DNA of 51,400 nucleotides from a virus (lineage: Duplodnaviria; Heunggongvirae; Uroviricota; Caudoviricetes). Below, one piece after another: positions 24,039 to 51,400 of this stretch. The stretch lies in IMG/VR virus record IMGVR_UViG_3300013288_000004, positions 255,360-306,759 of that record; one strand, given 5' to 3'. The translations under genes were made by a program, and so were the position numbers. Below the pieces are notes generated by a model. It saw only the letters and a list, made by a program, of their open reading frames with translations. It was not told where the DNA came from and searched no databases. The stretch's first letter is position 1. Each line of letters opens with the position of its first letter.

Positions 24039-25676
24039 TTACATCCTTTCGAAAGCGTCATCCCACCATTTTGGTATGTATCTTTTCATTCTACTATACA
24101 AAGAAGCGAATGATTCATCCAAAATGTAAGTAGTACCCCAATCTTCCTTATTTCTGACAACTCGTCCAGATGCCTGAATGATTGATTTCATAGCTTGTAA
24201 CATGTACCACTTCTGGCTTATTTCTGATCGCCTCTTGACCCATGCATCACCTAGATATGGATATGGCGTTTTTGCTATAACACTAAATCGACCTAAATCA
24301 TCTTTTAGATCTAGTCCCTCGGTCACTGATGGACTAATTAATATCTTTGGTCCTTTGTGGTCATCTGTCATGAAATTTTCAATGACTTGCCCACGTGCTT
24401 CTTCTGCATCGCTGTTATGATGGTAAATGCGATGTGGTATATGTCCCTGTAATTCGCGTACAAGCCAATTTGAGACCTGATAAGAGCCAGTATGTACCAC
24501 GCCATTGTCAGAGGCGTGCAAGTCCTTACAAATTGTTTTAAGGGCTTTAATCATGGCCTTTCTATCTGGTTCTCGTTCCTTGCTATCCCATCCATATGTC
24601 ATTTTAGCAACTGGGTTAAAAATAACTAATCTGTTGTCTACATCGAACTCGGATGGCATTGAAATAAATGCGGTTTGTGATGGATCTATACCTAGATCTG
24701 AACAGAACTCGTCCTTGTCCAAAATTGTAGACGACATAAACAAAAAGCGATGTGCTGTGTCATCGAAGAAGGAGCTAAAAATGTTTCTTGCATATAGCTC
24801 TTTGATCTCAAATGACTCAGGATGTTCAATTAACACATGTTCAGCAACGAACTCGTCCTTTGGCTTATCCATTAATAAATTAACCATCATCAAATGTTTC
24901 TTCGCTTTTTCTAATTCATCAATCAACATCATTTCTGTTTTAGATGGATTTTTACCTGCTGACATCTTATGTAAAATTTCATCAACTGCTATCTGTTGAT
25001 TCGCAATAAAAGACACAATAGCGTTTGTGTATTCAGTCGCAATGAAATTATGTGCATCTAATAAATTTTTAGGTTTTCTGTAATTACAGACATATCTAGC
25101 GCATGACTTCTGTGAAATGTATACACCAAATAAGTCAATTAGTTGTTTCTCGATATTATGGCATTCATCAAACACCATAAGCTTTCTTTTCTTCATTAGA
25201 TCAGCAGGTGTTAATTTATATGTGATAGCAAGTGTATAATTCATTACTAAATTACGAGAAGCGAGAGCTTCCTCGTATGCAGCCTTGTGACAACAAGGCT
25301 TGCACACTGGTTTAACTAAATTACCTATCTCACAATTGGTTCCTTTCATAGAACATTGATAATTGGATTTCCCATAGAACGAATAAGCCATATCAGGAAA
25401 TGAATCCTCATATTGCTTTTGTAATATTTTTTGAGGTGTTAAAATAAATGAATTACCAACTGATGGATTGTTCCCAGTAATTGAAGTATTAGTTGAATTA
25501 ACATTATCCATCCATGCACTAACATTTAATGCAATTGGTGACTTACCACCACCTACTGGTATTTCACATATGATATATTTTTTGTCTGCTGGTAGTGACT
25601 CAATCCATTTCAGTACTTCCACTTGTGTTTTACGTGGAGGTGATTTCTTGAATGGCCAGAAATTGAGAATGCTCAT
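24039..25676 (-). CDS. DinG/Rad3-family SF2 helicase
   Basis: PVGGGKS, Cys cluster, DECH, EGLDLKDD, QASGRVVR..EDWG. Confidence 0.9.
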   Translation of the reverse strand: MSILNFWPFKKSPPRKTQVEVLKWIESLPADKKYIICEIPVGGGKSPIALNVSAWMDNVNSTNTSITGNNPSVGNSFILTPQKILQKQYEDSFPDMAYSFYGKSNYQCSMKGTNCEIGNLVKPVCKPCCHKAAYEEALASRNLVMNYTLAITYKLTPADLMKKRKLMVFDECHNIEKQLIDLFGVYISQKSCARYVCNYRKPKNLLDAHNFIATEYTNAIVSFIANQQIAVDEILHKMSAGKNPSKTEMMLIDELEKAKKHLMMVNLLMDKPKDEFVAEHVLIEHPESFEIKELYARNIFSSFFDDTAHRFLFMSSTILDKDEFCSDLGIDPSQTAFISMPSEFDVDNRLVIFNPVAKMTYGWDSKEREPDRKAMIKALKTICKDLHASDNGVVHTGSYQVSNWLVRELQGHIPHRIYHHNSDAEEARGQVIENFMTDDHKGPKILISPSVTEGLDLKDDLGRFSVIAKTPYPYLGDAWVKRRSEISQKWYMLQAMKSIIQASGRVVRNKEDWGTTYILDESFASLYSRMKRYIPKWWDDAFERM

Positions 25677-25869
25677 GGGTATCCATTTGTTTATTTAATG
25701 ACATGACATTGTAGCACATGTGTCTTTGTACGTCCATCTGTGTTCGCGAACGTTCGCATGTGTTCATTACGGATGGGTGGAAAATTATTTATTTCCAGAA
25801 AAGCCAAAAATTTTTTTGCATATAGTTAAAAAGATTATAATATAAAAGCTTATGGTTTAATTTATTAGT

Positions 25870-25913
25870 ACTACGTGCTACGCACGTAGTTAGAAATGCA
25901 TTCGCATTTCTAA
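25870..25913. repeat. Two abutting perfect hairpins
   Basis: ACTACGTGC-N3-GCACGTAGT and TAGAAATGC-N4-GCATTTCTA. Confidence 0.85.
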
Positions 25914-25970
25914 TTTTTTATCTTTTTATCTGTTAATTTATAGTCAAGAGCTTATAGTCTAAAGAGCAGT

Positions 25971-26310
25971 CCCCCCTCCCCATTTATTAACTAATTCAAA
26001 CCTTATTATTTTGCTTGAATCAGAGGGTTAAATACACTATGTCACTCTCCAAAACCCGGCCATTATATCCTTGCCATTGACGGTTGCCATGCATCACTCA
26101 TGGAATTAGAAGTCAGGTTAACTTCTAATTGTTTCATCGAATCATATTCTTTAATACAACGCTTAATATCGAAAAGCTATTACATATCAAAGTCATTCGA
26201 AAGGATCTTTAACCATTTTGGTGTAACAGATTTAAACCTTATCTGTCACTGGTTTTCCGACGTTGGCGGTTTTAATGCCTCAGTGCAACCCTGTCAATAT
26301 TACCAATTTT
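25971..26310 (-). ncRNA. Candidate structured non-coding RNA (~340 nt)
   Basis: Own consensus promoter, long-range closing helix, several hairpins whose G-U pairs favour the minus strand, no credible ORF. Confidence 0.55.
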
Positions 26311-26315
26311 TTTAA

Positions 26316-26344
26316 ATCTTACAGTACTATATATGGTTTGTCAA
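26316..26344 (-). promoter_or_regulatory. Strong sigma70-type promoter pointing into non-coding region
   Basis: TTGACA-N17-TAAGAT. Confidence 0.75.
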
Positions 26345-26352
26345 CTCAGTTG

Positions 26353-27768
26353 TTATTCTTGTGATCGTCTTTTCAACAATTCTTCACGCCACTTCATAAA
26401 TCCGTCTTTAGTATCTCTTGTTTTTTGTGTAGTGGTGCTATCAGCTCTATCTCCAATTTGGTTTGGTTGATTAGCTACTTTAGATCCCAAATCAGATATG
26501 TTCGCATTCCTAATTTGCTTTCTATCTTGAATTTTATCATATGCGTCATCGTCTCTGATGGGGGGTGAGTTTGGCATAATCCTATCGACTGGTCTACCCT
26601 TTATAGCATCAACTGCTTTATTATTGTTGCCTAATGATCCCCCACCTTTTCCGTCTCCACCATTTTTTATGATACCTGCAACAGCCTGACCCTTGTCGGT
26701 AAATTTACCATTCTTGTCTAATAAGCCATTTGATTTGAAAGATTCCAATGAACTGGGACTGACCAACACTTTGGTTAAACTATTGACATTTAGAAACAGT
26801 TTAAGTAAATCTGATTTTTGTTTTGATGACATATTATCCACAAAGGCTGAAGCATCTAATGATGTCGTAGAACCCGCTAAACGCTTCGAAAGCGCATTTT
26901 GTTGATATTGACTATCCGATGAAAGTCTTTTTAGAGTTTGGTAGAATTCAATTGCCAGATTGCGTGCACTAAAAACAAAGTTTTTATCACTTAGTAATGT
27001 CATTATATCATCTGTCAATTTTTTATTAAGTACACCAGTCTCGCTAATTACACCCAATGCATTTAAATAGCTAGCTGTAGTTTTTTTGTTATCCAGCTTA
27101 TCCATTACGGTGTTAGTATATCCATCTTTCTTAGCATCTTCCCTAACTTTTATTAAATGCTTTAAGAAAGCTAATTCTGGTGCATCCATTTGTGTAAATA
27201 CTGAAAAAGCTTTTTGTAAATTTTCAGGCAGTTTTGCTACATAGGCTTTACCTGCCTCGTATTCTTCAGCGGAAAGGGTTTCTTTCATTTTCTGAAGTGG
27301 GCTTTTATAGAATTGATCTAATATTGGTTTTATTTGTCCTCGTAACTTACTTATTTTATCCCTTCTGACAGATTCTGCTTTAGTATTGTCAGGAAATTCG
27401 TAGTCCATCGCATTACCTGTAGAGTCAAGAATTGGATCTACTAAACGATATTTTGCAAGTGTATCAAATATGGCCTTCATGTTTCTGGCCGTTTTTTCTT
27501 GATGTTGTGGGAAATGTTGACGGAAAGCCGCTTTTTCTTGTTCGCTGGACATGGAATCCAATTGATATAATTTTCTAATTAGAACTCTATTGTTCATAGC
27601 TGTTCTACCAGAGACTAATTGCCCTGATATCCATTCCTGTGTAGGAGGTATGTAGCCATTTTGCAATATTTTGGCCATAATTTCTTTAGTTATCGCAGGT
27701 GCCATAACTTTCTCGAAATGATCACCACCCGTGATTTTCGATTCAATTAGATAAAAATTAGTTATCAT
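26353..27768 (-). CDS. Hypothetical protein, possible internal head protein
   Basis: 471 aa; MITNFYLIE leader; repeated L..GL....G.LT motifs. Confidence 0.7.
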   Translation of the reverse strand: MITNFYLIESKITGGDHFEKVMAPAITKEIMAKILQNGYIPPTQEWISGQLVSGRTAMNNRVLIRKLYQLDSMSSEQEKAAFRQHFPQHQEKTARNMKAIFDTLAKYRLVDPILDSTGNAMDYEFPDNTKAESVRRDKISKLRGQIKPILDQFYKSPLQKMKETLSAEEYEAGKAYVAKLPENLQKAFSVFTQMDAPELAFLKHLIKVREDAKKDGYTNTVMDKLDNKKTTASYLNALGVISETGVLNKKLTDDIMTLLSDKNFVFSARNLAIEFYQTLKRLSSDSQYQQNALSKRLAGSTTSLDASAFVDNMSSKQKSDLLKLFLNVNSLTKVLVSPSSLESFKSNGLLDKNGKFTDKGQAVAGIIKNGGDGKGGGSLGNNNKAVDAIKGRPVDRIMPNSPPIRDDDAYDKIQDRKQIRNANISDLGSKVANQPNQIGDRADSTTTQKTRDTKDGFMKWREELLKRRSQE

Positions 27769-27795: not shown

Positions 27796-28464
27796 TTATT
27801 TATCCTTAAAGATTTCAAACATAATTTTTGCGTCATTTATATCTTCTATTGGTTTTGGTATATTTTTGTTCTTTAAGATTGATTCAGAATTATCTCTAAG
27901 GAATGATGACCATGTACACGAGATATCAGATTCTATGATAGCTTTACACATTTCTGTTTTAGTAAATTTACCACCAGCTACACCATCATTATTACGGTAT
28001 TCTATTTTCTTTTTGACTTGAATAGGTTTGTAAGCCCATTTTGCCGTTAATGACTTCAGAGTTTTTGGCGATATGATCGTTACATTGTCTGTAAGTGCTA
28101 AACACTTTAGTCGGATTGTTGTACTCAGAGTCACTAAGTCTATCAAAGGACCAGCGTTAGATGAATAGCTATACCCTTCTATAAAGATATTAATATCATT
28201 CGTACATTCCTTAGAGATTGTGTTAAAAATGAATGCGGATATATTATTATATCTTTTTATTTTTTGGATTTCTGATTTGGAATAATCATCATCCAGTTTC
28301 AAGTCATTCATAATGTGATAATTTAAATATGGTTCACAGATGGTGAACCATTTATTATATCCATTCTTAGTGAGAGCGTAAGAATCATGAGTGATGATAA
28401 ATTTTTTATCATCTATGACCATTGCAGTGCAATTAATAGATGGGTCTATAGTAATAGTATGCAT
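27796..28464 (-). CDS. RuvC-like Holliday junction resolvase
   Basis: TIDPSINCTA, FIEGYSY, ISPKTLK, EDINDA. Confidence 0.75.
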   Translation of the reverse strand: MHTITIDPSINCTAMVIDDKKFIITHDSYALTKNGYNKWFTICEPYLNYHIMNDLKLDDDYSKSEIQKIKRYNNISAFIFNTISKECTNDINIFIEGYSYSSNAGPLIDLVTLSTTIRLKCLALTDNVTIISPKTLKSLTAKWAYKPIQVKKKIEYRNNDGVAGGKFTKTEMCKAIIESDISCTWSSFLRDNSESILKNKNIPKPIEDINDAKIMFEIFKDK

Positions 28465-50952: not shown

Positions 50953-51400
50953 ATGTTAAATTATTATTTTGATAAACTTACTGGAGATATTATAGCCCAT
51001 TCTGGACCTGCTCCAGATAGTGACAGAAGCGTATCGGTACAAATTAACGGTAATTCTGTATCCGTAAGAAATTACTCTTCCAATTTCTTTTTTAACGTTT
51101 TAGATTTGAATAGTGTAGCAATATCTGCTAATAGTATATCATATGATGATAAATACATAACTTTTAATTTTTCGGATAATGTTGTTGGTACTTTGAACAT
51201 ATATTTTGTTGGAAGTGTGCAAGAAATTATACAGATTACTAATACACCAACACCGACTTCATCAATTTCCATGACACCATCTGTAACAGCCACAGTGACA
51301 CCAACTGTGACACCAACTGTGACACCAACTGTGACACCAACTGTGACACCAACTGTGACACCAACTGTGACACCAACTGTGACACCAACTGTGACACCAA
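50953..51400 (+). CDS. Virion protein with TPTV repeats (runs off the window)
   Basis: Not in ORF track: [21 protein letters not shown]...[28 protein letters not shown]; ATAAATA upstream. Confidence 0.75.
51295..51400 (+). repeat. Perfect 12-bp tandem repeat GTGACACCAACT (>=8.8 copies)
   Basis: Read directly; continues past window end. Confidence 0.95.

Follow-up and report, generated by a model that had tools for sequence, protein, structure and literature searches.

Little is known of how jumbo phages begin replication, and the structured primer RNAs described to date come chiefly from ColE1-type plasmids. Both GOLLD and ROOL are found in phages. The described systems closest to the locus reported here are as follows. 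RNA II of ColE1 (PMC5043065), 550 nt in length, is made from a host-polymerase promoter and comprises several hundred nucleotides of folded RNA before the hybrid site, with alternative folds possible. The mitochondrial LSP/CSB II primer (PMC3488243) carries a conserved split G-run at the 3' end of the transcript. The T4 origins oriF and oriG consist of a promoter and an AT-rich element with a persistent R-loop, which is removed by UvsW; about 100 bp suffice for them, and no particular sequence is required downstream (PMC3016281). DinG unwinds both R-loops and G4 (PMC10400533). Mini-hairpins that are more stable as DNA than as RNA occur at the priming sites of phage G4 and RSF1010 (PMC13037366). 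GOLLD, ROOL and OLE (PMC12286853) are large multi-helix non-coding RNAs without known function.

The window, i.e. the whole stretch of 51,400 nucleotides that we analysed, is the final 51.4 kb of a 306,759-bp (~307-kb) virus genome; an independent assembly, of run X1, matches it without differences, and X1 is possibly the source of its DNA. The genome encodes T4-type capsid, portal, gp55, gp46/47 and baseplate genes (Pfam/PHROG annotation), together with 26 tRNAs and a permuted tmRNA. The virus is a T4-like jumbo phage and a relative of XacN1. The element under study occupies a 676-bp gap between a gene for a 471-aa protein (26353-27768, minus strand) and a DinG-like SF2 helicase gene (24039-25676, minus strand; Pfam Helicase_C_2, phrog_2488), and a RuvC-like resolvase gene (27796-28464, minus strand; phrog_159) belongs to the same conserved gene order. 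The helicase has four invariant cysteines (C108, C115, C125 and C128), likely for an Fe-S cluster, and is 45-49% identical to those of XacN1, Xoo-sp13, RAS14 and CM1, the closest four of 497 matching records. The parts of the locus follow one another in a fixed order: a promoter-like site, a folded body, an A-tract/G-tract, an AT-rich spacer with mini-hairpins, a second promoter-like site and the helicase gene.

A preliminary description of this DNA had proposed a promoter-driven structured RNA, and every motif it named was found on the minus strand at the position given. The predicted RNA (type 1) covers about 340 nt (25971-26310, minus strand). Upstream of it lies the sigma-70-type promoter-like site TTGACA-17-TAAGAT (26316-26344, minus strand; predicted start near 26309). 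The site is where it had been placed, agrees at 29 of 34 nt with the promoter that precedes this genome's tRNA-Tyr and has similar counterparts in 8 of the 18 members of the family (pattern search); taken by itself, the motif match is within chance expectation, with three promoter-like sites found versus 5.1 expected. An exact TATAAATA, a late-type promoter element by the T4 consensus, is present upstream in 3/18 members. The second promoter-like site (25708-25736, minus strand) stands just before the helicase gene; similar sites were seen by eye in relatives, and it is kept in G003, a genome that has lost the RNA. Since the helicase has this site of its own, the RNA is unlikely to be a simple 5' UTR of the helicase. 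The distance of 630 nt formerly given to the nearest downstream gene had been counted from the promoter; the helicase gene starts 295 nt past the G-tract. The first description saw no credible reading frame in the element; a 71-codon antisense frame (26100-26315) exists but is not conserved, and the longest antisense frame in L001, which is 90% identical, has 13 codons. We found no minus-strand terminator after the RNA, no plus-strand (antisense, RNA I-like) promoter-like site in 25500-26600, and no RNA run among the listed sequencing runs that contain the element.

Helicase searches returned 5, 30 and 56 loci, and those with the order hub, RuvC-like gene, variable gene, gap and helicase were inspected by eye; besides the window, fifteen of these hold a type 1 RNA. 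A pattern built from the 5' core alone matched 12 viral loci, 10 of them known and two new (L222 and L227), and both new loci end in an A-tract/G-tract, which was not part of the pattern. Type 1 now has 18 members, all at one locus, upstream of and co-oriented with the DinG-like helicase gene. Median pairwise identity is 47% (first 16 members), and the window's RNA has 40-90% identity to each of the rest. Only one copy is present in each of the four complete type 1 genomes searched, and a covariance model (R1) run against G003, XacN1, RAS14, 49 other loci and five partial records detected no second copy. No cultured phage with type 1 was found; BLASTN with three members against 50,697 phage records gave short chance matches only, and the core pattern matched nine times in GTDB genomes, in no case with a score from either the HMM or the covariance model. 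A 15-nt pattern of the XacN1 type was also tried and discarded, with no homologue among the 121 loci it matched.

In a helicase tree of 46 rows (L140 and L227 left out), the 26 loci with this gene order form one clade (support 100/98). Type 1 is spread across the clade and missing or replaced in 9/26 rows, on at least three branches, and is read from the tree as ancestral in the clade. In the complete genome G003 the helicase is the sister of L165's, and this genome is without the RNA, the G-tract and the mini-hairpins.

A search of Rfam 15 showed no family above the gathering threshold over the RNA (best E 2.5), no match in 17 homologous loci, and matches in the window to two tRNAs only. The element had not been recognised as a tmRNA, RNase P RNA or intron, and it is none of these: ARAGORN finds no tmRNA here and places the genome's permuted tmRNA elsewhere, Rfam gives no match to RNase P RNA or introns at permissive E, and no gene is interrupted. 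An RNase P-like core was considered and rejected; the strand proposed for its P4-like helix pairs locally in another helix, Pa (see below). No retron/DRT reverse transcriptase (PF00078) was detected in five genomes. A literature search listed no description of the type 1 family; four ncRNAs are described from PA5oct (PMC7318152). Six motifs were absent from six supplementary files of a survey of viral structured RNAs (PMC10690425), among whose 10,006 candidates the family may be present, and the word 'phage' does not occur in the main text of a 2026 preprint on non-coding families. With 18 homologues, covariation and no Rfam match, the earlier suggestion of an undescribed large structured ncRNA is borne out; as judged from sequence, these loci hold a genuine family of large folded RNAs, so far uncatalogued, that belongs to jumbo phages of the XacN1-like kind.

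Compared to shuffled sequences, the region has a folding energy of z -2.2 (z -3.6 for a slightly longer stretch), and z is below -2 in 11 of the 18 members. The core of the RNA consists of two stacked helices, Pa and P4. In an unfitted MAFFT alignment, the 14 core pairs were paired in 94% of 252 cells versus 79% in shuffles, with 50 two-sided changes versus 16, a count reached by 0/500 shuffles and not corrected for kinship; slid controls gave at most 46%. Covariation among homologous intergenic regions, which the preliminary description had named as a check, therefore supports the fold. L171, whose middle domain did not match the anchors, was omitted from counts at fixed offsets (n=17). Pa is formed by a 5' strand at 26287-26293 and a 3' strand at 26201-26207 (both minus strand), with 7/7 pairs in 13 of the 17 members and 6/7 in the other 4. 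P4 follows directly and is paired in 17/17 members with nine different 5' strands. It opens a long P4-P5 arm of nearly fixed length (26137-26200, minus strand), in which 26182-26178 forms an A-rich bulge and 26177-26161 a conserved apical loop, an arrangement that may resemble the double T-loops of T-box and RNase P RNAs.

In the predicted pseudoknot P1, 26257-26261 (minus strand) pairs with 26297-26293, and only the central pair is kept throughout (G-C or G-U in 18/18); the neighbouring pair is kept in 11/18. Hairpin P3 (26223-26249, minus strand), described earlier as GTGACAGAT/ATCTGTTAC, shows two two-sided changes in close strains, and P6 and P7 (26087-26130, minus strand) are two further variable hairpins. 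The hairpins first described have, taken together, three two-sided changes and one broken pair in close strains from four other studies, several of the contigs being of low depth. Towards the 3' end, a hairpin-type pseudoknot, P9/PK3, lies with a conserved GTTTGG-like block (26049-26085, minus strand) and is weak in the window's subclade: the 5 bp of PK3 are fully paired in 13/18 members versus 39/292 swapped combinations (4/5 in the window), and 85% of cells were paired in a second alignment test. The pseudoknots ATCCTT/AAGGAT and AAAACC/GGTTTT proposed before are not conserved beyond the closest relatives. A GTC/GAC pseudoknot was dropped, because Pa and a fifth P4 pair account for the same changes.

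The long-range helix of the first description survives in part. Its motif is present, but the conserved partner of 26293-26287 is 26207-26201, i.e. Pa. The GGTTGC/GCAACC half offers the same 5' strand an alternative partner at 26082-26087 (minus strand), which is a perfect 4-nt partner in 11/18 members versus 2.1 expected. In the window the alternative helix is predicted to be 4.5 kcal/mol more stable, pseudoknots being ignored. Because it competes with Pa for one strand, is conserved to this extent and has this predicted stability, a two-state folding switch is possible.

The RNA ends in an A-tract, a pyrimidine and a G-tract (25971-25990, minus strand; G4-A-G6 in the window), predicted to act as an R-loop anchor. 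All 18 members end in this manner: an A-rich run and a pyrimidine are followed by 6-10 G in the first 12 nt, a number that bears on a putative CSB II-type hybrid G-quadruplex, which would require at least two G-runs. Tracts of this kind occur eight times in this genome and 1-12 times per genome in seven genomes; because they recur, the weight of the G-tract lies in its fixed place in 18/18 members, not in rarity alone. Next to it, 25991-26027 (minus strand) contains the last hairpin and, at 26027-26022, a pyrimidine tract that could pair with the G-tract; own partners matched better than swapped ones (260/20000 permutations, kinship not corrected). The G-tract may belong to a closing helix, since it has a potential partner within the RNA; in the XacN1 type this pairing spans 11-13 bp. 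Unlike in the freely covarying helices, however, the G side never swaps to C in the 18 members.

Downstream lies an AT-rich spacer (25820-25970; about 74-77% AT), a predicted unwinding element, with two palindromes (25913-25890 and 25890-25870) whose GAAT and GTA loops are closed by C-G; the former has a terminator score on the plus strand as well. The AT content of the spacer is 0.77, whereas 121 other gaps have a median of 0.66, with 0.74 at the 90th percentile. C-GNA-G mini-hairpins are found within 250 bp after the G-tract in 12/18 loci and are absent from 6/18. We counted 15 GNA mini-hairpins in 4,500 bp of spacer and none in 123,500 bp of flank, a generous control because the flank is mostly coding. 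The locus accounts for 2/5 of the mini-hairpins genome-wide in G000, 1/4 in G001, 2/3 in G002 and 0/2 in G006; G003 has none. The palindromes lie on either strand, some have T runs after them, and similar ones at other sites look like terminators, but most have long AT-rich stems, unlike terminators. In close strains from four other studies, the similar stretch begins at the promoter and extends no further than the hairpins. Direct (iteron-like) repeats showed no clear enrichment (6/22 spacers versus 16/121 gaps).

The same gap holds other occupants. In 4/4 XacN1-type phages, it contains an unrelated RNA of ~480-560 nt (type 2; L006:3365-3855 in XacN1, L007, L008 and L140:2880-3360). Its helices covary, C6 and G6 form a long-range helix, no Rfam family matches it, and it is unannotated in the records seen; three of the four phages are cultured. 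Its 3' end is a purine run followed by C-G6, with an internal partner of 11-13 bp, so that a G-run persists (4/4) although the RNA body differs. A third candidate RNA, without a G-tract, is found at L183:2797-3460 and L190:2700-3200, followed in L190 by about nine copies of a short AT-rich direct repeat. The covariance model R1 detected no remote homology of type 1 to types 2 or 3. Four loci of the clade have only promoter-like sites and palindromes, and the RNA-less L169:3064-3495, L176:2031-2390 and L187:3148-3477 keep a promoter-like site and long AT-rich palindromes (stems up to 18 bp) with GNA loops.

We give a probability of about 0.5 to the reading that the predicted transcript is the primer of a transcription-initiated R-loop origin, by analogy to ColE1 RNA II, CSB II or T4 oriF. 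What the sequences show directly is the conserved fold, by covariation, and the layout; all later steps are inferred. The G-tract in 18/18 members, the AT-rich spacer and the mini-hairpins give it real, if circumstantial, support. In outline, host RNA polymerase would transcribe about 330 nt, and the 5' part would fold during transcription, the two competing partners of the 5' strand perhaps acting as an on/off switch. The purine-rich G-tract RNA would stay on the DNA as an R-loop, possibly with an RNA-DNA G-quadruplex like that of CSB II. In the AT-rich spacer, the DNA would open and the palindromes fold into single-stranded DNA hairpins, where a helicase or primase could load. A T4-type RNase H of the phage might trim the RNA to a primer, and the neighbouring DinG-like helicase might remove the R-loop, as UvsW does in T4. 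The T4-type RNase H domain (PF02739) is encoded in 5/5 genomes, including G003 without the RNA, and RNase HI in 0/5.

Each model system shares part of this design. As for ColE1 RNA II, a host-polymerase promoter-like site precedes a covarying fold of several hundred nucleotides with possible alternative states; the transcript and its hybrid are predicted, the RNA is shorter (340 nt) with a pseudoknotted core, there is no sequence or Rfam similarity, and the setting is a lytic phage genome where no antisense RNA I promoter was found. The split G-run at the predicted 3' end recalls CSB II, but the phage RNA has a long folded body, some members have only G6-G7, and quadruplex and termination are putative here. 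As in T4 oriF and oriG, a promoter is followed by an AT-rich element (AT-richness being a proxy for unwinding), and the genome encodes a T4-type RNase H and a helicase of an R-loop-unwinding type; the locus differs in that a conserved fold of 340 nt and the G-tract separate the promoter from the AT-rich element, and its helicase is DinG-like, not UvsW. The C-GNA-G mini-hairpins resemble the initiation hairpins of phage G4 and RSF1010 ssiA and the promoter hairpins of N4 (PMC13037366), except that here they lie on either strand, have long AT-rich stems and often tandem GA pairs; their use by a primase is putative. Large size and multiple helices are shared with GOLLD, ROOL and OLE, from which the phage RNA differs in its lack of an Rfam match, much shorter length, conserved 3' G-tract and downstream DNA palindromes.

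Several observations stand against a primer. G003, a complete sister genome, is without the module, and type 1 is missing or replaced in 9/26 rows of the clade, although the origin could be dispensable because it would be one of several replication routes, as in T4. The potential partner of the G-tract within the RNA, the strand-bias results given below and the direct repeats, not clearly enriched, count against a primer as well. A late-type promoter element precedes 3/18 members, and T4 origins are shut off late. There is no antisense promoter like that of RNA I, and the palindromes, missing in 6/18, lie on either strand and have terminator-like look-alikes. The main rival is a free, stable, trans-acting RNA (a scaffold, ribozyme or tRNA-binding RNA) of the GOLLD/ROOL sort, whose G-tract would close the terminal helix and whose palindromes would end transcription; we hold this to be a substantial possibility, if probably not the right one. 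An ornate fold with pseudoknots and sequence-conserved loops would suit such a role, and the arm of fixed length with its bulge and apical loop might grip a tRNA elbow, like T-box stem I and RNase P. The genome encodes 26 tRNAs and a tmRNA, and the RNA has its promoter in common with one of the tRNA genes; this, the late-type elements, the better match of own pyrimidine tracts and G-tracts and the T runs after some palindromes point the same way. A closing helix is at odds, however, with a G side that never swaps to C and with a G-run that is still present in the XacN1 type, where a different RNA body has taken over, and the long AT-rich stems of most palindromes are unlike terminators.

Next comes a cis-acting leader (attenuator or riboswitch) that would control read-through into the helicase by a two-fold switch. 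The constant position upstream of and co-oriented with the helicase, the single strand with two competing partners and the sense strand without a clear terminator agree with it, but we consider it improbable, given the second promoter-like site right before the helicase, kept in the RNA-less G003, about 300 nt of unconserved AT-rich DNA between the RNA and the start codon, and no terminator or Shine-Dalgarno platform that covaries with the RNA. Least of all do we expect an RNA element that is selfish or mobile, or the remnant of an intron, in a safe gap: such an element is suggested by the patchy presence of type 1, in whose place two other RNA types can stand, yet the RNA is single-copy in the four complete genomes searched and ancestral in the clade, reverse transcriptase occurs in 0/5 genomes, and Rfam gives no group I or II intron match.

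Returning to the primer reading, a more specific version appears rather doubtful as a whole: a dedicated pseudoknotted primer RNA with a fold switch during transcription, a G-tract lock on the DNA and possible tRNA sensing via the T-loop-like arm, swappable for unrelated folds that keep the G-rich end. Any pseudoknotted primer RNA in a phage would extend the ColE1-type mechanism to viruses, in a defined 500-bp module. Even if priming fails, there is a new large folded RNA family whose core is backed by covariation, besides two more uncatalogued RNA types in this gap, one of which occurs in cultured phages.

GC skew, another of the checks named at the outset, provided no clear replichore signal. 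The raw skew turns near the locus only with gene direction, which explains the minimum there, and it was discarded as a sign of an origin. In all seven genomes, whether the RNA is present or not, genes directed away from the locus contain 60-77% of the four-fold sites within 120 kb; between co-directional and head-on genes, four-fold sites differed at p<0.05 in 1/7 genomes in the GC test and in 2/7 in the TA test. Weak strand bias is expected where replication is mostly recombination-driven, as in T4. The main switch of gene direction is at about 29700 of the window, ~3 kb from the locus, in 7/7 genomes, including those without type 1. A 12-bp tandem repeat at the genome ends (window 51295-51400 and G000:C1:1-105), recorded as a 'terminal repeat', was rejected as an origin: it is coding (TPTV), and the record therefore probably ends at an assembly break inside a gene.

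The fast-evolving 471-aa protein upstream was considered as a partner or initiator for the RNA and rejected, as its distribution is not tied to the RNA (absent from L177 and L180, which have the RNA; present in L167, L169 and L176, which lack it). It has weak winged-helix hints: its model shows three helix-plus-hairpin units, Pfam HTH_45 matches 2/20 homologues, and a fold search was not significant, with MarR-type folds reaching E 0.56 at best. Like most structural genes, its gene is preceded by a TAAATA element. Near tRNA clusters, CTAAATA occurs within the -35/-10 spacer of promoter-like sites (G000:C1:96518, 96813, 152004 and 153136), which suggests combined early and late promoters; the RNA promoter carries CATATATA at about the same position. 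The genome also encodes a tRNA with a CUA anticodon (amber suppressor type; G000:C1:111535-111607, minus strand), and its circularly permuted two-piece tmRNA, predicted by ARAGORN at G000:C1:188755-189099 (minus strand), has the tag ASNDEFFDVEYAQAA.
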